Shown: positions 53,138-62,903 of the stretch, one piece after another | Position numbering within the stretch: position 1 is the stretch's first letter | Layout: every line of letters begins with the position of its first letter | Virus record (IMG/VR): IMGVR_UViG_3300046453_000060 | Coordinates: 2,207 to 66,206 of that record | Length of the DNA: 64,000 bases | DNA from: a virus | Lineage: Duplodnaviria; Caudoviricetes | Reading direction: 5' to 3' (one strand) | Notes under the pieces: generated by a model | What the model was told of the DNA's origin: nothing | What the model saw: the letters and a program-made list of their open reading frames with translations, nothing else | Database searches by the model: none | Position numbers and translations under genes: made by a program

Positions 53138-54040
53138 ATGTGGTTCAAGAACCTGCAGGTATATCGCGTTCCGCAATGTGCGCCATTTATCGATCAACTG
53201 GAGTCCGCCCTTGAACGCCAGACCTTCGTGCCGGCGTCGAGCAATGAGCTGCTCCGCCAAGGATGGGCGCCCGTGCGTGGCGATGGGTCGCCCCTCGTTC
53301 ACGTGGCCAATGGTCAACTGCTGCTGAAGCTCGTCACGGAAAAGAAGATCCTGCCGGGGAAGGCAGTCAACCAGCGCGCAAAGGAAATGGCCGACAAGCT
53401 CGAAGACGAGCAAGGCTTCAGGCCTGGCAAGAAGGCAATGAAAGAGCTGAAGGAGCGCGCTGCGGATGAAATGCTGCCGAAAGCGTTCTCGGTCAAATCC
53501 CACCTCAACGTCTGGATCGACCCGAAGAACGGCTGGTTGGCCGTGGATGCCGCAAGCCCAAGCAAGGCTGACGAAGTGATCAAGCTGTTGCTGAAGTCCG
53601 TCGACAAAATGCCGCTGGAATCGCTTCGTGTACAGCGCTCGCCAGTGGCGATGATGACGGCCTGGCTGAAACAGGAGGCGTCCGCTCTCGACTACGATTT
53701 CACCATTGACCAGGATGCGACCCTGCAGGCGGTCGGCGACGGTAAGGCACAGGTCGGCCTCAAGAACCACAGCCTCGACCCCGAGGACATCTGGCAGCAC
53801 CTTTCCAGCGGCAAGCAGTGCACCCGCCTGGCGATGACCTGGAACAGCCGAATCTCCTTCGTCCTGACCGAGAGCCTGGCGATCAAGTGCATCAAGGCGC
53901 TCGACGTCATCAAGGAAAACCAGTCCATCACCTACAACGACGACGACCGCTTCGACAACGACTTCTTCCTGATGAGCAGTGAGCTGGCCAAGATGCTTGC
54001 CGACCTGGTGGAAGCGCTCGGCGGCGAAGCAAAAGGATGA
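53138..54040 (+). CDS. rdgC: Recombination-associated protein RdgC
   Basis: MWFKNLQVYR, GWAP, EKKILP, LPKAFS, GKQCTRLAMTW..RISFVL, RFDNDF.LM..EL...ALGGE. Confidence 0.96.
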   Translation: MWFKNLQVYRVPQCAPFIDQLESALERQTFVPASSNELLRQGWAPVRGDGSPLVHVANGQLLLKLVTEKKILPGKAVNQRAKEMADKLEDEQGFRPGKKAMKELKERAADEMLPKAFSVKSHLNVWIDPKNGWLAVDAASPSKADEVIKLLLKSVDKMPLESLRVQRSPVAMMTAWLKQEASALDYDFTIDQDATLQAVGDGKAQVGLKNHSLDPEDIWQHLSSGKQCTRLAMTWNSRISFVLTESLAIKCIKALDVIKENQSITYNDDDRFDNDFFLMSSELAKMLADLVEALGGEAKG

Positions 54041-54237: not shown

Positions 54238-55605
54238 ATGGCAAACGACTTCGACACCACCAACCCGGCACGCCGCCTCGAAGACCACCGTCCGGCCGCA
54301 CAACTCGATTGGGGTAAGCCGGATGCGCCGGCGGTGCCGAAGTCGACCACTGCCGGTGCCGCGCGCCAGGGCGGCAATACGGGCCTCGAAGGGCTGGCGC
54401 GGTACACCGAAGTTGCCGAATACACCGGCGATGAACTCGTGATCCCCGATCCTCGCGGCGAGTACGTCAAATTCAAGGACGTCGAGCGCCTTTTTGCATC
54501 CATCCCGCCACTCACCGCGCCAGTACCGCTAACCAAGGCCCTTGCCGACGATGATCGTTACCAGCATGTGCGCGATCTGCTGCTGGACTCGGTGACGGTT
54601 GCGAACAAGGATCGGTTGCATCAGGCCCTCGATCTGCTGAGCGATCTTGCTGCGGCATCTGAGGCTGCGCCAGCACCGCAGCAGAGCGAAAAGCACCTGC
54701 CGGGCTGGGAGCGCGGCATTGCCACCGTGACGCTGAGCGGCCACCAGTTGCGCATGGCGCTCGACCTGATCAACCCAGACGGCCCGAGCGACGATATCCA
54801 GATGGGTGATGAACTGACCTTTGGAATCGTGCAGCACAAAGACGACGAAGGCAAGGCCACGACCGGCATGTGCTGCTGGAATGGTGATACGGACGGCGTT
54901 CTGCCGCTCGATGGCGAGTATGAAGCCGAGGCTGAACCAGCACCGCAGCAAAGCGATCTGAGCGACGATCAGATCATGGACATCGCCGAGCCGTTCCACG
55001 ACATCAACGGCGTCAAGTTCGACGAGGTGGCATTCGCTCGCGCTTTGCTGGGCCGCGCCAAGGCTACGCCAGCCGCCCCGGTGCAGACCGCGTGGCTGCC
55101 GATGCCGAGCGCACCGAAGGACGGCACGATGGTGCGCCTGCTGGTCGAGTTCACCGAAAACGCGACCGAAGACAGCGCCGAGCCCTGCCCAACCATCGGC
55201 GCGAACAACTTCGACAACGACGAGCAGGACGAATGGAAGTTCGCCGGCTGGAACTGGTCGCACGACTGTTTCACCGAAGGCGTCGGCACGCCTGTCGGCT
55301 GGTTGCCGCTGATCGACAACGCATCGTCTGTGGCCGCTCCTGTGCATGCAGCACTGGAACAGGCGCAGTGGATTAGCGTCGATGAGCGCCAGCCAGAAAA
55401 CGATACCGAAGTCGTTGTTCGCTACTGGCCCTACAACAACCATCAAAACAGGCAGGCTATCGGCTATGCGCGCTACTACGACGGCTGCTTTTACGACGAG
55501 GACATGAACCCGCACCATCCGCCGAGCCACTGGATGCTGATGCCAGAAATCACGCGCACCCCTAGCACTCCAGAAGCAAGCGAGCAGCAGGGAGGCCAGC
55601 AATGA
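54238..55605 (+). CDS. Mosaic Ea/Eaa-like protein with C-terminal DUF551-like module
   Basis: WLPMPSAPKDGT...PVGWLPL and WISVDERQPE...PSHWMLMPE modules joined by Ala/Pro linkers. Confidence 0.8.
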   Translation: MANDFDTTNPARRLEDHRPAAQLDWGKPDAPAVPKSTTAGAARQGGNTGLEGLARYTEVAEYTGDELVIPDPRGEYVKFKDVERLFASIPPLTAPVPLTKALADDDRYQHVRDLLLDSVTVANKDRLHQALDLLSDLAAASEAAPAPQQSEKHLPGWERGIATVTLSGHQLRMALDLINPDGPSDDIQMGDELTFGIVQHKDDEGKATTGMCCWNGDTDGVLPLDGEYEAEAEPAPQQSDLSDDQIMDIAEPFHDINGVKFDEVAFARALLGRAKATPAAPVQTAWLPMPSAPKDGTMVRLLVEFTENATEDSAEPCPTIGANNFDNDEQDEWKFAGWNWSHDCFTEGVGTPVGWLPLIDNASSVAAPVHAALEQAQWISVDERQPENDTEVVVRYWPYNNHQNRQAIGYARYYDGCFYDEDMNPHHPPSHWMLMPEITRTPSTPEASEQQGGQQ

Positions 55606-55796: not shown

Positions 55797-56027
55797 GTGA
55801 CGGTTCTCGCGTCGTGCGAATACTGCGGCAACCAGCCCGAGCGGATGAAAGGCAAAGGCTGGGCTTGCGAGTGGTTTCAAGTTCGCTGCCGCAATCCTCG
55901 TTGCGTAGAGCACGGCACCACTCGCCACATCACACAAGGCAAGGCTGATCGCCTCTGGAATATGAGGCAGGCCCAGCACCGGAACATCATCAGAAATGCG
56001 GCTCAAGCCGCATCAAGAAAGGACTGA
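55797..56027 (+). CDS. Small zinc-ribbon protein (Lar-like)
   Basis: CEYCG...VRCRNPRC...A..LWN. Confidence 0.55.
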   Translation: MTVLASCEYCGNQPERMKGKGWACEWFQVRCRNPRCVEHGTTRHITQGKADRLWNMRQAQHRNIIRNAAQAASRKD

Positions 56028-56030
56028 ACC

Positions 56031-58637
56031 ATGACCCACACCACCACGCCCGGCGCTACGACCGGCACAGATGCAGATATCGACGCATTCGCAGCGATCA
56101 GAAACCGCCTGGAACTCGCGTACCGGCTTTGCTGCAGCACGGCTCCAAAGCAGGCGGTCGGCGAACTGCTCGATGTTGCGCTCAAAATGCCCGAATGGGA
56201 AACGGTCAAGGCCGCACTCGCTCGCCGAGCTGCACCGGCTACGTCGGGTAGCACGAGCGGTGAGACTTTGCCCTGCCCGTTCTGCGGCGGTGCATGCGAT
56301 CCCGAAGGCTGGCTTGGCACTGGGATCGGCGGCGCGTCAGTTCGCGGCCCTGAGTGCGAACAATGTGGTGCAACCACTGACACCATCGAGGACTGGAACC
56401 GCCGCGCCACCACTACCGCAGCCAATGCTGTAGGAGCGGTAGACGGCCTGCCGCCGCTTCCCGCTTTCCATAACGGCCTCTACGCCAAATGGGAATTGGA
56501 GACGATGCTGAAGGACTACGCCCGCGCCGCTCTCGCCCAGCAAGCCGCATCCCAGGCGCCGATTACGCCCGAGGATCGCGAAGCCTACCGAATGGGCTTG
56601 GAGGCTGGCCGCGCTCTCGCCAGAGAAGCATCCCAGTCGGATACCACGGCAAGCGCGAGCGGCTGGAAATTTGTGCCGCTGATCGACACGAACGCCATGA
56701 TGACGGCAGCTTATGCTGCTTGCGATGCGGCGGGCGACCGCGTTTCATCTGCCGCTATCAGCCGAATTTACCAAGCAGCGGTTGCTGCCGCTCCGACCCA
56801 GCCGGTACAGGCTGGAGAAGCGGTAGACCGCCCGCTGGACCTGTTCGATGAGATCGAATGCGATCTGTCTTATCTTTTCGGCCGCGCGTCGAACGAAGGT
56901 CATGCAGCAGGTCAGGAACTGGCCCAGCAGGTCAAAGCCAAGATGCAGCGTGCCCGCGCCAGTCTTGCCCCGGTATCCGCCCAGCCCAATCCCATCGAAT
57001 ACGACAGGATTGTGAAGGCCGATGAGAAGGCGATGCGGGCCGCCGACGCGCTCGACGGCATGGGCTTTACCTACGATGCGGAAATTGGTTGGCTGGCCCC
57101 GGTATCTACTCAGCAGGGCGCAGCCGAGCTACACCATGCTGTTGAATGTGATTCCGCCCTGCGCGCGGCACCGGCAGGCCAACACAGTGCCAACCCTATA
57201 GTGATGGCCGAGTTGCGGCGCTGGGCAGGCGACGACCCTGGCTACGCTGCGATGCTGGTTCGCCGTGCAATCACAGAAATCGAGGAGCTTGAAACAGAGT
57301 TAGCTACCCGGTGCCGCGCGGAGGGCGGCGTTACGAACGACAACGAAAGCTCGGATCTCGCAGCCAAAGCACCGGCAGCGCAGGCTGATCCGATGGGCGA
57401 CAGGTGGCACAGCCTCGTCTGTGATGGCACTTGCTCCCCGCCTTGCGAAAACGCGCCTGCCGCTGCATCGGCAGCGCAGGCTGTAGATGCAGCCGAGGCG
57501 CTGGCGGCAATCGCGCGCTTCGCCAAGGCCGATCACCCGAACAGCAGTGCGACGTTCAAAGAGCGCAAGGAGGCGCGCGAGCAAATCGACGCCATCGCGG
57601 CGCGCATCGGTGCAATCGATGGCCCTGCCCCTGCACCCGAGGCGATGACATCCGGCACCCTACAAACGCAACTGGTGTCTGCATTGAAGCGATTGGAGCA
57701 AGCCAACGACGAACTGTGCAAACTTCGCACCAGTGAGCAATACCTGTCGATGATCGATGGCGGACAGCAGGATGCGCTTTATGAGTTGGATAACGCGCGG
57801 GAGGCAGCACGCCAAGCCGTAGCTGCTGCCGAGGCGATGACATCCGATCAGCAGGCGGCGCATCCTGATGACCTGGCAGTGGATCGCTTCGCTGCCGCGA
57901 TGAAGTCCAAGCTGGCGCAGAAGCGCGGCGAGGGCCGGGGCGGCTGGGAGACTGCCGAATGCGCGGACGAGTTCTTGGCCGAACTCCTGATGGGTCACAC
58001 GAAAAAGGGCGACCCAGTGGACGTGGCAAACTTCGCCATGATGCTGCACCAGCGCAATCTCGATGACATGGACATTGCGGTTCTGGTCCTGCGCTCTGCG
58101 GCGCTGGAATTCGCAAAGCGTACCGCGCCGATGTTTATGCGCGAGGCGGCGCATGCACAGCAACCAGCAGCGCAGGCTGTATGCGCCCCGAGATGGCTGA
58201 AAGACACGTGCAATCAGGGCTATCAAGTCGAGCGCTGCGCGACGTGCGGCACCTATAAAGGCAATCCGTGCCGCCTCTCCACGCCCCCTGCAGCAGCGCC
58301 GAGCGTATCGGCTACCTGGCAATGGGTGCCTAAAATCCCGACGCAAGCGATGATCGACAACATCGCAGCATTCGTGGACGGCCGTGAGAACGACGCCGAA
58401 GTTATCTACCGCGCCATGATCGCTGCCGCTCCTACCGCTGGAGCAGCGGCGACCAGCGATGACGCGGCGCTGCTCGATTTCCTCGATACCAACGTCCACA
58501 AGTTCCGCATGGGCTGGCAGGTAGGCGCGGCACCAGTCGGCAACCTGTCGGTGCGCGCGATCATCATGGGCGGCCAACCCATCCGGGAGGCAATCCGGTC
58601 CGCCATGTCCGCCCATCAGGAGCCCCGCCATGAATAA
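56031..58637 (+). CDS. Large mosaic multi-module protein including a Lar-like zinc finger
   Basis: LPCPFCGG...CEQCGA...WNRR; HPDDLAVDRFAAAMKSKLA..R..GRGGW...KGDPVDVANF; repeated linkers. Confidence 0.8.
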   Translation: MTHTTTPGATTGTDADIDAFAAIRNRLELAYRLCCSTAPKQAVGELLDVALKMPEWETVKAALARRAAPATSGSTSGETLPCPFCGGACDPEGWLGTGIGGASVRGPECEQCGATTDTIEDWNRRATTTAANAVGAVDGLPPLPAFHNGLYAKWELETMLKDYARAALAQQAASQAPITPEDREAYRMGLEAGRALAREASQSDTTASASGWKFVPLIDTNAMMTAAYAACDAAGDRVSSAAISRIYQAAVAAAPTQPVQAGEAVDRPLDLFDEIECDLSYLFGRASNEGHAAGQELAQQVKAKMQRARASLAPVSAQPNPIEYDRIVKADEKAMRAADALDGMGFTYDAEIGWLAPVSTQQGAAELHHAVECDSALRAAPAGQHSANPIVMAELRRWAGDDPGYAAMLVRRAITEIEELETELATRCRAEGGVTNDNESSDLAAKAPAAQADPMGDRWHSLVCDGTCSPPCENAPAAASAAQAVDAAEALAAIARFAKADHPNSSATFKERKEAREQIDAIAARIGAIDGPAPAPEAMTSGTLQTQLVSALKRLEQANDELCKLRTSEQYLSMIDGGQQDALYELDNAREAARQAVAAAEAMTSDQQAAHPDDLAVDRFAAAMKSKLAQKRGEGRGGWETAECADEFLAELLMGHTKKGDPVDVANFAMMLHQRNLDDMDIAVLVLRSAALEFAKRTAPMFMREAAHAQQPAAQAVCAPRWLKDTCNQGYQVERCATCGTYKGNPCRLSTPPAAAPSVSATWQWVPKIPTQAMIDNIAAFVDGRENDAEVIYRAMIAAAPTAGAAATSDDAALLDFLDTNVHKFRMGWQVGAAPVGNLSVRAIIMGGQPIREAIRSAMSAHQEPRHE
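57154..57328. repeat. In-frame cassette 1 bounded by 21-bp inverted repeats
   Basis: ccgccctgcgcgcggcaccgg (57154-74) / ccggtgccgcgcggagggcgg (57308-28), 20/21 complementary. Confidence 0.85.
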
Positions 58638-58902
58638 GCCGATCCTGCCCGCCCTGCTGTTCGGTGCTGCGCTTGCTGCGCTGCTGTTCGTGAACCCGAT
58701 GACGTTTCAATACGATCCCACCCACTTTACGGTGCTCAAGGTGCATGTGTGGGCGATTGGCTTCGCGCTGCTCGGCCTGTGGTTCGCGTTCGTCGTCTGT
58801 GGCTATCCGGCCCAGCGCGGCCAACTGGCGATACTCACCGTCCTGGCGCTGGCGCTGGTCGCTCTCGTGCGCCTGGCTACCTGGAATCCAATCTGGATCT
58901 GA
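58630..58902 (+). CDS. Small membrane protein (three hydrophobic segments)
   Basis: RBS aggag; hydrophobic. Confidence 0.7.
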   Translation: MNKPILPALLFGAALAALLFVNPMTFQYDPTHFTVLKVHVWAIGFALLGLWFAFVVCGYPAQRGQLAILTVLALALVALVRLATWNPIWI

Positions 58903-58904
58903 CC

Positions 58905-59099
58905 ATGAAAATAGAACTGATACTCCTTGCCCTGTTCGCCCTGGCCGTTACCTACACCGTCAACCCGTGGCTGATCTTTTACGCAGTCGATGTCGCGTGG
59001 AACTGGCTGTCCGACCTGAGACACTTTTACTCGCTCGTCCTGCTGCTTGGGATCGTCGTCCTTATCCGGCGCTGGTGGCGCATGACGGAGGGCGCGTGA
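58905..59099 (+). CDS. Small membrane protein
   Basis: Hydrophobic; coupled downstream. Confidence 0.6.
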   Translation: MKIELILLALFALAVTYTVNPWLIFYAVDVAWNWLSDLRHFYSLVLLLGIVVLIRRWWRMTEGA

Positions 59100-59533
59100 T
59101 GCCGATCAAGCCTGAGAACAAAGCGCGCTACCCGGCGAACTGGAAGGAAATCCGTACCGCGATCCTGGCGCGCGCCGAGAACCGTTGTGAAACGTGCCGA
59201 GTGCTTAATGGCGCACGGATTGCGCGCGGCACCGGGCCTTTTGCCGACACCTTCCAGAACGAAGAAGCTGAGGTATTCGATGCCGAAACCGGAGCGTACA
59301 TTGCACAGGTTCGCATGGGAGAGTACCAAGTCAAGAACATGGTGACGATCGTGCTGACCATCGCGCACCTCGACCACCAACCGGAGAATTGCGATCCGGC
59401 CAACCTGCGCGCGCTGTGCCAGATGCACCACCTGCGGCACGACGCTGCGCACCACGCGGAAACCGCCCGCAACACCCGCCGCGAGCGCCTTGCTGTGGCA
59501 GACCTTTTTGAATCGGATCAGACAAATGGATAA
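59099..59533 (+). CDS. HNH-like phage protein
   Basis: MPIKPENKARYP.NW, RCETC, VLTIAHLDH.PENC...NLRALCQ.HH. Confidence 0.85.
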   Translation: MPIKPENKARYPANWKEIRTAILARAENRCETCRVLNGARIARGTGPFADTFQNEEAEVFDAETGAYIAQVRMGEYQVKNMVTIVLTIAHLDHQPENCDPANLRALCQMHHLRHDAAHHAETARNTRRERLAVADLFESDQTNG

Positions 59534-60440
59534 CCGCATCAACATCAAAGCCGAGCAGCGCGCAATCATCGAACGCGCGATCAATTTTCTCGACAGCGGC
59601 ATGCACACCATCATCGCCCGCGACACGATGGCGAACGAATTGCGAAAGCTGCTCGCCACTGCACCCGCAACAGGAGAGACGGAAGACCTGCCGCCGCTGC
59701 AAACGGGAGGCATTGACGCAAACAAATTAGAGGCGATGGCGAAGGAAAGGCCCGACGAGTGCTTCCTCAAGGGTGGCGGCGTGCTGAAGCTGATCGGTGC
59801 GATTCGGCAGTTGGAAGCTGAAGCCCACTACCTGCGCAAGCAAGCCGGCCAGGTTGGCGCAGAAGTTGATTCGGATCGTAACGCCGCCCTGCGCGCGGCA
59901 CCGGCTGGTCAACATGAAGCGAGCCGTGCTGTGCTCGATGCACTGCGCTGCGGGATTCCGCTGCAAGAGCCAGTCTATATCGCCAAGGCGCTGCTTGCTG
60001 GACGAGAGGCGCGGTTATGCCTGTCCGGTGGCACGGGTCCAGTCTCGTGCGTCATGCTTTGCAATATCCAGATCAGAACATGGGCCGACACGCCGGAAAC
60101 GGCGAAATCGTTCGCCGAGGGCTACAACATGGGCGTCTCGCACTATCGCGATGCACTGATTGGGCTGGCCGAGAAAGTCGAGCGTGACGCGGCTTCCCGG
60201 TCCCGCGCGGAGGGCGGGCATGGTGACAAAGATAGCTCGGACGCCGCCCTGCAAGAGATGATCGACATAGGGCAGGCGACCCATGCGTTCACAAAGCCGC
60301 CCGGCTGGGTCAACCTGCTGAACCCCGGTCAAAACTGGGAAGACTGGACGCGCGAGCAAGGGCCGCCGACAACGAAAGGTTGGAAAATTGCCGGTCAGGA
60401 AGGCGAGCAGCCGACGATCAAGGAGAAGAACAATGGATGA
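59526..60440 (+). CDS. Mosaic hypothetical protein
   Basis: Coupled ORF; carries the second inverted-repeat cassette. Confidence 0.7.
   Translation: MDNRINIKAEQRAIIERAINFLDSGMHTIIARDTMANELRKLLATAPATGETEDLPPLQTGGIDANKLEAMAKERPDECFLKGGGVLKLIGAIRQLEAEAHYLRKQAGQVGAEVDSDRNAALRAAPAGQHEASRAVLDALRCGIPLQEPVYIAKALLAGREARLCLSGGTGPVSCVMLCNIQIRTWADTPETAKSFAEGYNMGVSHYRDALIGLAEKVERDAASRSRAEGGHGDKDSSDAALQEMIDIGQATHAFTKPPGWVNLLNPGQNWEDWTREQGPPTTKGWKIAGQEGEQPTIKEKNNG
59884..60217. repeat. In-frame cassette 2 bounded by the same 21-bp inverted repeats
   Basis: ccgccctgcgcgcggcaccgg (59884-904) / ccggtcccgcgcggagggcgg (60197-217), 19/21 complementary. Confidence 0.85.
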
Positions 60441-61263
60441 GATGAAGAAGATCGGCGCACAGATGGCGAACGTGATGTTCAACCTCGCACAGTTGCCGGG
60501 CGAGCGCATCACCTACCAGCAAGCGGAAACCTTTGACAAGCTGCGCAAGGAATGGGACGCAGCAGTCCGCGCCCCTTCCTCCGCCCCTACTGCTGGGCGG
60601 AAGAGCATTGATAGTCCGGAGTTCCGCAAGCTGATCGCGCATGCGCAAGGCTTCGACGATGGCGAGCCGATCTTCGGCGAATCGGAACTCGCCCTCATCG
60701 CCCACATCGACACCTGGGCCGGTCGCAGTGCTGAAAACATGGTGGTGGAAAAACAGCCCGAAATCGGTGCAAAAACGGCTGAAACCCGCATGGATAGTGG
60801 CTTTGCTGGTGGTGGCCGAGTCGCTCACAGCGCGGCCCCGGCGACCGATGCTGATGCGGCGGATCTTGCGGCCGCACTGAACGCCGCAGTTGATGCCGAA
60901 TTCCCGATTCCGGACACGCCTCACACCTCTGTCCTGATGCGCAACACCGAGCAGCGCGCAGCCATGTGGCGCGGCATCAATGCGGCCCGGAAGATCCTGG
61001 GCGCTCGCAGTGCTGGCGATGCAGTGCCGGCAGAGATGAGCATTGCAAAGATCCGCGAGTCCATCTTCGACTACTACCGGGCCTTAAATCGCCGCGATCA
61101 TGGCGCCGTCGCCATGGACCGTGCATTCCGAGCCATCGAGTGCGAGCTAGGAATGGGATGGTACTTGTGGAATCGCGCTGAGGAAGCCGCCAAAGCGGAG
61201 CCTGACACCACTCCTACTCCTGACGATGCCGCGCCAACCAAGGGAAATTCTAAAAATGGATGA
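60433..61263 (+). CDS. Mosaic hypothetical protein
   Basis: RBS aaggag; GAQMANVMFNLAQ; repeated RSA linker. Confidence 0.7.
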   Translation: MDEMKKIGAQMANVMFNLAQLPGERITYQQAETFDKLRKEWDAAVRAPSSAPTAGRKSIDSPEFRKLIAHAQGFDDGEPIFGESELALIAHIDTWAGRSAENMVVEKQPEIGAKTAETRMDSGFAGGGRVAHSAAPATDADAADLAAALNAAVDAEFPIPDTPHTSVLMRNTEQRAAMWRGINAARKILGARSAGDAVPAEMSIAKIRESIFDYYRALNRRDHGAVAMDRAFRAIECELGMGWYLWNRAEEAAKAEPDTTPTPDDAAPTKGNSKNG

Positions 61264-61844: not shown

Positions 61845-62903
61845 ATGCGACCGAAAACGAGCGGCAAGAAACTGCCGCCGCGCATGCTGGCGCGGAGACG
61901 ACGACTCAAGTCCGGGGAAATCTGGATTGGCTACTACTACAATGGCCGCGGCGACGATGGCGAGCGCAAGGAGATTCCGCTTGGGACGGACCTGATTGCC
62001 GCCATACAGAAGTGGGCCGAACTCGAGTGCAAAGAGGTGCCGCCGGATGCATCGCTCATGAGGTACGCCTTCGACCAGTACGAGCGCGACATCCTGCCGA
62101 AGAAGAAGCCGTCGACGCAGCGCGAAAATCGCCTCTGCCTGTCGCAGCTGCGCCCGATTTTCGACAGCGCGCCGATCGAGGCGATCCGGCCCCAGGATAT
62201 TGCTCGATACCGTGACGCCAGATCGGCGCCGGTCCGGGCCAACCGCGAAATCGCCCTACTCTCCCACGTCTTCAATATGGCTCGCGAATGGGGATTCACG
62301 AAGCGAGACAACCCGTGCCGCGGCGTCCGGAAGAACAAGGAAAGGCCGCGCGACTACTACGCTGAGGACGATGTCTGGAACGCGGTACGCGAAGCTGGCA
62401 CGGATGCGCTCCGCGATGCGATGGACCTGGCGTACCTGTCGGGCCAGCGGCCAGCTGACGTCCTGAAGATGAACAAGGTAGACATCCGAAACGATGAGCT
62501 GCACGTCCGCCAAAACAAGACGCAGCACGGCCTGCGAATCCGTCTGCACGTCGATGGCCAGCCAACCGAGCTAGGCATGTGCATCGACAGGCTGCAGGCC
62601 CACCCGGTCAAGGCGATGAGTGGAGCGCTTATTTGCACCGAGCAGGGGCAGCCGCTGACGGCGAAGATGCTCAGGGATCGGTTTGAGGCTGCACGATCTG
62701 CCGCTGCTGATAAGGCGACGAAGGCGCGCCAGGAGGATCTGGCGAGGCGCATAAAGGCCTTCCAGTTCCGCGACATTCGACCGAAAGCGGCGAGCGAAAT
62801 GACCAGTCTGCAGGACGCTAGCGACCTGCTTGGGCACACCGACAAGCAGATCACGAAGCGGGTTTATCGACGCGCCGGCGAGGTGGTCAAGCCGACCAAG
62901 TGA
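61845..62903 (+). CDS. Tyrosine recombinase (phage integrase)
   Basis: ANREIALLS, LSGQRPADV (Arg), QNKT (Lys), FRDIRPKAAS, LLGH, VYRR (Tyr). Confidence 0.96.
   Translation: MRPKTSGKKLPPRMLARRRRLKSGEIWIGYYYNGRGDDGERKEIPLGTDLIAAIQKWAELECKEVPPDASLMRYAFDQYERDILPKKKPSTQRENRLCLSQLRPIFDSAPIEAIRPQDIARYRDARSAPVRANREIALLSHVFNMAREWGFTKRDNPCRGVRKNKERPRDYYAEDDVWNAVREAGTDALRDAMDLAYLSGQRPADVLKMNKVDIRNDELHVRQNKTQHGLRIRLHVDGQPTELGMCIDRLQAHPVKAMSGALICTEQGQPLTAKMLRDRFEAARSAAADKATKARQEDLARRIKAFQFRDIRPKAASEMTSLQDASDLLGHTDKQITKRVYRRAGEVVKPTK

Follow-up and report, generated by a model that had tools for sequence, protein, structure and literature searches.

The window analysed here is a stretch of 64,000 nucleotides from a virus (Caudoviricetes), nearly all of the 66,206-bp IMG/VR record IMGVR_UViG_3300046453_000060, which is rated complete. 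In the early, rightward-transcribed part of this temperate phage, two protein genes (gene 1 and gene 2, Table 1) each contain an in-frame cassette, in which two short inverted arms enclose a coding interior, here called the cargo.

The 21-mer CCGCCCTGCGCGCGGCACCGG occurs exactly at 57154-57174 and 59884-59904, and its reverse complement lies at 57308-57328 (one mismatch) and 60197-60217 (two mismatches). With up to three mismatches allowed, these are the only four matches in the window, against 0.06 expected, and none of 100 shuffled sequences reaches four. The whole record holds the same four, while the motif read backwards as a control gives none. Within a pair 19-21 of 21 nt are complementary, as in terminal inverted repeats, and the repeat continues weakly past the 21-nt core both outward and inward, with a fuzzy outer border. 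The left arms read SALRAAPAGQH and AALRAAPAGQH and the right arms TRCRAEGG and SRSRAEGG, both of the latter followed by a common tail (CGACAACGAAAGCTCGGA and TGACAAAGATAGCTCGGA). The interiors, 133 and 292 nt long, differ by 53 codons and lie within long open reading frames (ORFs); blastn at E ≤ 1e-3 finds no match between them. Furthermore, positions 57308-57336 and 59876-59904 are complementary except at one of 29 positions, and the repeat search extends this relation to 38 nt at 87%. An earlier note, made from the letters and their reading frames, had described the core of this: the identical left arms and near-complementary right arms with their peptides, the unrelated interiors whose lengths keep the frame, the tail after the right arms, which now appears as a direct-repeat family, and the 28 complementary bases out of 29 between the right end of cassette 1 and the left end of cassette 2.

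A variant of the right arm is also found upstream, in the DUF551 gene (Table 1), where the relatives L005, L007 and L125 read RCRAQG(G/D)-(I/E)TSL(E/D)GLTRY. An apparent third copy of the arm in the HNH endonuclease gene, an exact 15-mer at 59221-59235, is best explained as chance codon identity, because the homologue in the related locus L008 keeps the peptide IARGTGPF with different codons.

The same arrangement recurs in related phages. The exact 21-mer is present in six viral contigs, all matches having a CGTRWYG-like outer extension, and a 19-nt degenerate core is present in 27 viral stretches. Counting with a pattern that tolerates indel forms gives 61 arms in 46 non-redundant related loci. 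Among the 24 neighbouring pairs at most 1300 nt apart, 20 are convergent, two divergent and two tandem, where random orientation would give about one quarter convergent. In the orientation of the gene, the sense copy SALRA(E/A)PAGQH always comes first, followed by the antisense copy R(C/F/S)RA(Q/E)GG-xT. The 20 convergent interiors span 100-1005 nt, are mostly unrelated and are usually coding in frame. All-against-all blastn of the cargos (E ≤ 1e-3; 24 convergent pairs compared, with the redundant or identical-cargo copies L171/L119, L191/L115 and L121/L113 discounted) links a single independent pair, L113/L121 with L128, and there are at least 19 distinct cargos. The cargo of L113 is a cysteine-rich zinc module and that of L110, as read from its sequence, an FtsK-gamma-like winged helix, while in L115 and L119 the interior includes a stop, and a new ORF begins within it. 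Arm pairs are found in at least six outer contexts, and right arms are often solitary. One cassette, at 8099-8325 of L008, is the only one with the same derived form in both arms (a 2-nt deletion, ACCCG), perhaps through a recent inverted duplication or through conversion between the arms.

Exchange of cargo is seen at the individual sites. The outer frame of the gene 1 cassette (…APVSAQQGAAEQHNAVECD, then arm to arm, then xTSxxxxSxLAAKAPAAQA; in short form AAEQHNAVECD … LAAKAPAAQA) is present in six loci with six different cargos, and protein searches add further cargos in P0028, P0033, P0035, P0037 and P0038. The same cargo is also seen in different frames. In P0032, cargo 2 lies between arms within a gene-1-type frame; cargo 1 is found in P0030 and in P0031 with other outer contexts, and in P0031 its left arm is read as PPFAAPAGQH. 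The domain homologous to cargo 2 also exists without arms, in P0006, P0007, P0008, P0010 and P0012. At the gene 2 site, P0004 has the right arm alone, other cargos stand without arms in P0005 and P0029, and in P0022 and P0027, which are known as proteins only, RKQA runs straight into ALQEIIDI, the empty form. The arrangement itself, the alleles that have another cargo, lack the arms or are empty, and the finding of one cargo in more than one frame together show that cargos have been exchanged. The earlier note had proposed a constant frame with an exchangeable in-frame payload, and this is borne out by the at least 19 interiors at the DNA level and the additional ones at the protein level. Fixed interiors with neither empty nor alternative alleles would have counted against that proposal; instead alternative-cargo, one-arm, armless and empty alleles all exist. 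The cargo of P0035 includes a second, partial N-side junction (…EDEAPAGQH…) between its arms, which suggests nested or serial cassettes.

The arms are not the only conserved stretches. A blastn search of positions 56000-60600 against 42 related loci gives almost only short matches, 27-90 nt long and 88-100% identical, with variable sequence between them. About 13 stretches of 27-50 nt, representing 11 junction types and including both arm pairs, match the relatives, mostly at 88-100% identity, while longer homologous stretches are just 69-80% identical (the HNH gene 78.5% over 461 nt, others 69-79% over 120-310 nt). The arms are two junction types within a larger set of conserved junctions, which the earlier note had not remarked on. 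The junction peptides are rich in Ala, Pro and Gln and linker-like, for example APVSAQQGAA, AAKAPAAQA and RKQAGQVG. A peptide of the APVSAQQGAA type precedes modules in 13 armless loci. The AAKAPAAQA pattern is found in 19 viral stretches, and in 14 of 20 loci, the window included, a module lies directly upstream of it with no arm. For the junction at 56951, two more matches begin a few bases earlier, at 84-90% identity. Gene 1 contains three direct copies coding for APAAQA (57369-57387, 57465-57483 and 58161-58179); unlike the inverted arms, these could delete or duplicate the intervening modules by intramolecular exchange.

A metagenome scan returned 67 stretches, eight of which pass the flank filter, two of these eight being duplicates of viral loci. 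Two rhizosphere DNA runs contain the stretch, both as contigs only, in which rare rearranged forms are not visible; no RNA run was listed as containing it. The first run, a possible source of the phage, gives one contig and no variant. In the second, contigs match the junctions and skip the cargos, for example from 57184 to 57291 and from 59859 to 60195. These joints are related phages with other modules and not a rearrangement of this phage.

It is possible to ask whether the arms are kept as DNA or as peptide. Left arms with a 1- or 2-nt deletion keep the DNA and read PPTRGTGSQH or PP(F/V)AAP(A/V)GQ(H/Q) instead of the standard SALRAEPAGQH. Right arms read RCRAQGG in the standard form, AGAARQGG after a 1-nt insertion (including the copy at 54353 in the window) and AGSAKGG after a 2-nt deletion. 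Since the arms are read in three frames after indels of 1-2 nt, they are either conserved as DNA or young and spread by recombination, and not conserved as peptide. The ends of the homology are variable, some loci diverging after EPA and others after GQH, which fits homologous rather than site-specific exchange. In a structure model of the gene 2 product, of medium to low confidence (predicted local distance difference test, pLDDT, 64.8; predicted template modelling score, pTM, 0.29), the arms fall at the ends of helices or in coil, positions consistent with linkers.

These observations bear on a reading in which the junctions act as peptides, either as flexible linkers or as polyprotein processing sites (cleaved, for example, after …RAQGG), and the palindromy of the DNA is incidental. 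Such a role is possible but improbable. It would agree with the fusion in gene 1 of modules that are separate in other phages (Lar-like, NTP-pyrophosphatase-like), with the position of the arms in the model, and with the retention of (Q/K)GG in all frame variants of the right arm and of (G/S)Q(H/Q) in nearly all those of the left. However, the rest of the arm is conserved as DNA while the peptide changes with the frame, and selection on a peptide leaves the sense-antisense match of 19-21 of 21 nt unexplained; no protease turned up, no search for one having been made. The …RAQGG end may resemble the LRGG sites of the ubiquitin type.

We suggest that the locus has been shaped by junction-mediated modular shuffling, in which linker-coding arms let homologous recombination swap modules, and by a small balance we hold this to be the correct explanation. 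The early genes at 56031-58637 and 59526-60440 would be chains of small, independently folding modules, joined by linker-coding junctions of 27-50 nt that stay near-identical as DNA even where the modules of two phages are otherwise unrelated. The arms would then be an N-side junction, …AVECD-SALRA(E/A)PAGQH, and a C-side junction, R(C/F/S)RA(Q/E)GG-xT(S/N)…. When two phage or prophage genomes meet, a double crossover, in the left and then in the right junction, would replace the module in frame, and any gene with the junction pair could thereby receive any cargo that the pair flanks. We infer that homologous recombination is the agent, which would be carried out by the host RecA or by an unrecognised phage function. 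The inverted relation between the N-side and C-side junctions we take to be a historical inverted duplication, whose antisense reading stayed open by chance and for which no pairing is required.

Several points weigh against modular shuffling of this kind. No exchange was observed directly, the first rhizosphere run giving a single contig without variants. Most loci were found by near-exact arm patterns, so part of the arm conservation is built into the sample. The stretches at 56951, 58142, 59823 and 60390 played no part as search patterns, so their conservation is not an artefact of how the loci were found. Modular shuffling does not account for the inverted relation of the two junctions, and the convergent rule (20 of 24 pairs) hints at a coupling of the junctions that simple linkers do not predict. 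Finally, no short-homology phage recombinase was found in the record, RecT and ERF both being absent, and by the standards of RecA-dependent exchange a core of 21-45 nt is short.

The inverted-copy relation and the strict convergence leave room for a more specific mechanism. A dedicated system that exchanges cassettes in frame could use the inverted pair for recognition; it would be the counterpart, at the level of domains, of integron or shufflon cassettes, with a phage or host function acting on the arms or on a hairpin of single-stranded DNA (ssDNA). If this were true, the phage could quickly re-assort small host-takeover or anti-defence modules. We regard it as an unlikely possibility. Family searches of the record, each checked on control genomes, found no Resolvase (PF00239, 0 matches), Y1_Tnp, rve, RecT or ERF, and the relevant enzymes present are a tyrosine integrase, an HNH endonuclease and RdgC. 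It had been stated earlier that the integrase is the only recombinase seen, with no transposase or invertase adjacent, and these searches support the statement. The HNH endonuclease was considered as the acting enzyme and set aside, its homologue adjoining one of 42 related loci only (L008).

The integron attC site is a short imperfect palindrome of ~57-141 bp that follows the cargo and has conserved core sites. The earlier suggestion of an attC-like hairpin does not agree with the arms seen here, which enclose 100-1005 nt of coding cargo and not a short loop. A search of viral contigs for the unsplit, empty palindrome, with arms at most 30 nt apart, returned a single unrelated match.

A different role for the inverted relation is that arm pairing itself is functional, an ssDNA or mRNA stem of ~20-28 bp looping out the module. 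Such a stem could promote template switching or the replacement of cassettes, or it could govern how the RNA is processed or the module translated. The convergent arrangement in 20 of 24 neighbouring pairs, the continuation of the inverted repeat beyond the 21-nt core and the maintenance of the arms as DNA across reading frames are all in its favour, and in the predicted fold of the cassette 1 RNA the two arms pair (-101.7 kcal/mol, z=-4.3), as is expected of any such repeat. However, the arms do not covary with their partners: in 19 cassettes, an arm matches its own partner in 18.26 and the partners of others in 18.49 of 22 columns (permutation p=0.92), in a test that is not strong because the way the loci were found limits arm variation. 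The usual pair retains two fixed mismatches, G8 and A16 on the left against C8 and C16 on the right, and the synonymous CTC at position 8 that would restore pairing is found in none of 19 left arms. Right arms reading RFRAQGG would pair perfectly with the common left arm, yet in these cassettes they are not partnered with it. Rfam has no family match, the two weak hits (E of 0.33 and 0.69) falling far below the gathering score. There is thus no sign of a selected stem or of the compensatory changes that characterise a structured RNA. The earlier idea of an RNA stem that loops out the module, for which covariation between the arms had been named as a check, finds no support here, and we consider a functional hairpin possible but doubtful.

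The cassettes might also be coding, non-autonomous units similar to miniature inverted-repeat transposable elements (MITEs), mobilised in trans by a transposase or recombinase of the host or of another element. Inverted repeats of ~21-45 nt that bound units of 160-1050 bp, the at least six outer contexts, and the presence of cargo 1 and cargo 2, each with arms, in different genes would fit such units. MITEs, however, share a homologous interior, a cognate transposase and many genomic copies, and here the interiors are mutually unrelated, the record is devoid of rve, Y1_Tnp and resolvase families, and the motif is not multi-copy in hosts. In one genome from each of 185,579 species, the degenerate 21-mer has 98 matches, one per contig, mostly in high-GC Actinobacteria, where they encode AALRAEP-type peptides. 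GC-rich DNA readily yields the 21-mer, so relatedness must be judged from the flanks, and these are shared in just one of the 98, a contig of Massilia brevitalea (L078) with a related prophage. The variable ends of the homology, the one-arm and armless alleles that hold cargos at the same site, and the right arms that often stand alone also speak against trans-mobilised cassettes. The MITE-like element of the earlier note is therefore not supported by the unrelated interiors and the missing rve, Y1 and resolvase families, and we rate trans-mobilisation as possible though fairly improbable. A host repeat family of the repetitive extragenic palindrome (REP) type was likewise rejected, on the same single matches and the sharing of flanks by L078 alone.

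An inversion switch, with the arms as crossover sites and a protein truncated on flipping, was another of the earlier proposals. The arms are indeed inverted, and cassette 2 has the tyrosine integrase 1.6 kb downstream. On the reverse strand cassette 1 reads AALRAAPGS and then a stop, as had been predicted, so that inversion would end the protein after 9 codons and give no alternative product. There is no serine-family invertase, the integrase present is of a generic kind, and the first rhizosphere run, in its contigs, has a single form. No cargo is inverted relative to the arms; the shared cargo (L113/L121 against L128) has the same orientation in both, a test of low power with one cargo common to independent DNA loci. 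We find a switch very unlikely.

Among known systems, the closest in mode of action are the promoter-early stem-loop (PeSL) cassettes of T4-type phages and the motif and variable-segment design of gp38. In PeSL cassettes short conserved sequences flank unrelated inserts, and recombination between these sequences is held responsible for shuffling them. Each PeSL combines a promoter and a terminator, lies between genes on either side of whole ORFs, acts as a direct repeat and can yield mini-circles (Arbiol et al. 2010, PMC2839356). They share with our locus the short conserved sequences in a variable region of related phages and the unrelated or alternative inserts. The junctions here, in contrast, are intragenic, are translated in frame as linkers, flank protein modules and are inverted copies, so that an intramolecular exchange would invert the module and not excise it. 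Promoter and terminator activity and direct-repeat exchange to circles are not features found at this locus. With repeats that are in frame within ORFs and mutually inverted, it is not a PeSL, though it could work in a similar way. These cassettes were reportedly studied further by Comeau et al. in 2014.

In the gp38 adhesins of T-even phages, conserved glycine-rich motifs separate hypervariable segments (Trojet et al. 2011, PMC3157838). The likeness, judged from the abstract, is that conserved in-frame motifs alternate within one gene with readily interchanged segments. However, in gp38 a single domain has the motifs as its structural core and the variable parts as loops, whereas here whole unrelated domains of 33-330 aa are joined by linker-like junctions; an inverted-repeat relation is not described in that abstract.

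Other systems share single features with the locus. In polymorphic toxins (VENN in CdiA, the end of the Rhs core) a conserved coding motif borders a variable module, and its DNA serves as replacement homology. These bacterial toxin-immunity systems have a single N-side junction before a C-terminal toxin, whereas here there are junctions on both sides, in early phage proteins with no paired immunity gene. The Rickettsia palindromic elements (RPEs) are palindromic repeats inserted in frame into protein genes. Like them, the cassettes have inverted ends within coding sequence and add a peptide segment; RPE copies, however, share their interior and have no foreign cargo, while the cassettes have just their ends in common and enclose unrelated domains. 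In invertible segments and shufflons (Gin/Cin/Min, Rci) and in integrons with attC sites, inverted repeats bound exchangeable coding segments. The former need a dedicated recombinase and two productive orientations, and integrons need a short folded attC with the cargo outside it; neither holds here. Polyvalent proteins of phages and conjugative elements combine several small host-conflict domains in one polypeptide (Iyer et al. 2017, PMC5512222). The abstract of that work mentions no conserved DNA junctions between the domains, and the proteins here are smaller. In the papers covered by the literature searches, supplements aside, we came across no account of phage protein modules bordered by inverted junctions that are read in frame.

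The domain mosaicism of phage proteins is known, while the route to frequent swaps that preserve the frame is mostly unknown. The main text of a large survey (PMC10684548) has no instance of 'linker', 'breakpoint' or 'inverted repeat'. The present locus is a concrete and testable case: its early genes are divided up by a small vocabulary of near-identical DNA junctions, 27-50 nt long, and in related phages about twenty or more different domains are found within one and the same junction pair. Should the junctions be handles for recombination, they would explain the rapid re-assortment of small early modules, probably for host takeover, and mark module borders in proteins with no assigned function. 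They could also be natural in-frame docking sites for engineering.

The surrounding features are listed in Table 1. RdgC is a RecA modulator and could bear on recombination during infection.

Table 1. Genes, arms, cargos and conserved junctions in and around the cassette region (window coordinates).
Position	Strand	Feature	Reading or evidence
53138-54040		RdgC homologue, full-length	PF04381, E=7e-100
54238-55605		DUF551-containing gene, 455 aa	DUF551 C-terminal
54353..54374	+	C-side junction variant in DUF551 gene, 1-nt insertion	AGAARQGG (AGAARQGGNTGLEGLARY)
56031..58637	+	Gene 1, 868 aa, chain of small modules	ORF and translation; PHROG matches on separate segments
56951..56986	+	Junction	RARASLAPVSAQ; 96.9-100% over 28-36 nt in 14 loci fetched with other patterns
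57093..57126	+	Junction, APVSAQQGAA type	LAPVSTQQGAAE; 87-91%, at least 10 loci
57140..57185	+	Left arm, cassette 1 (N-side junction; core 57154-57174)	AVECD-SALRAAPAGQH
57186..57296	+	Cargo 1, ~37-44 aa, helical	SANPIVMAELRRWAGDDPGYAAMLVRRAITEIEELETE
57297..57344	+	Right arm, cassette 1 (C-side junction; core 57308-57328)	LATRCRAEGGVTNDN
57359..57390	+	Junction	LAAKAPAAQA; 100% in 10 loci; weaker direct copies at 57465-57483 and 58161-58179
57460..57491	+	Junction, copy of APAAQAV type	AAASAAQAVDA; 93-96% to 5 loci; one longer match 79%
58142..58173	+	Junction	REAAHAQQPAAQA; 94-100%, 7 loci not fetched with this sequence
58420..58466	+	Junction	IAAAPTAGAAATSDDA; 85-93%, 8 loci
59099..59533	+	HNH endonuclease gene, between the cassette genes	phrog_1571, E=1.9e-27
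59526..60440	+	Gene 2, 304 aa, mosaic	Each relative shares one module with it
59823..59859	+	Junction	AHYLRKQAGQVG; 89-100%, 3 loci; RKQA invariant in 8 of 8 aligned relatives
59873..59914	+	Left arm, cassette 2 (core 59884-59904)	DRN-AALRAAPAGQH
59915..60185	+	Cargo 2, ~90-aa domain	Contains LRCGIPLQEPVYIAKALLAGREARLCLSGGTGPV
60186..60230	+	Right arm, cassette 2 (core 60197-60217)	AASRSRAEGGHGDK
60243..60279	+	Junction	AALQEMIDIGQAT; 89-92%, 2 loci; directly after RKQA in P0022 and P0027
60390..60431	+	Junction at end of gene 2	GQEGEQPTIKEKNN; 84-98%, 7 loci; one longer match 75%
61845..62903	+	Tyrosine integrase, sole recombinase family found	phrog_1, E=3.6e-36

A Pfam scan at E ≤ 0.01 gives no family for gene 1 or gene 2, and the precomputed PF26207 label of P0006 was not reproduced in our own scan. 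A family match identifies residues 75-131 of gene 1 as a Lar-like restriction-alleviation zinc ribbon. Residues ~590-684 resemble an all-alpha NTP pyrophosphatase, with matches to Pseudomonas phages at 57879-58055, one of them so annotated. Several further modules belong to PHROG families without assigned function, and two small cysteine-rich units were recognised by reading the translation alone. Gene 1 thus unites modules that in other phages have small early genes of their own, and may be a small polyvalent protein or a polyprotein.

The protein search with gene 2 matches 27 proteins. Leaving aside the window's own, the 25 best cover 11-46% of the query, and the weakest match, P0029 (E=1.7e-4), covers 84% at 28% identity. 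Among cultured phages, matches are limited to the HNH gene and the pyrophosphatase-like module, with no relative of the cassettes. Between gene 1 and the HNH gene lie two small hydrophobic ORFs, 58630-58902, which overlaps the stop of gene 1, and 58906-59099; judging from their translations, both are likely membrane proteins.

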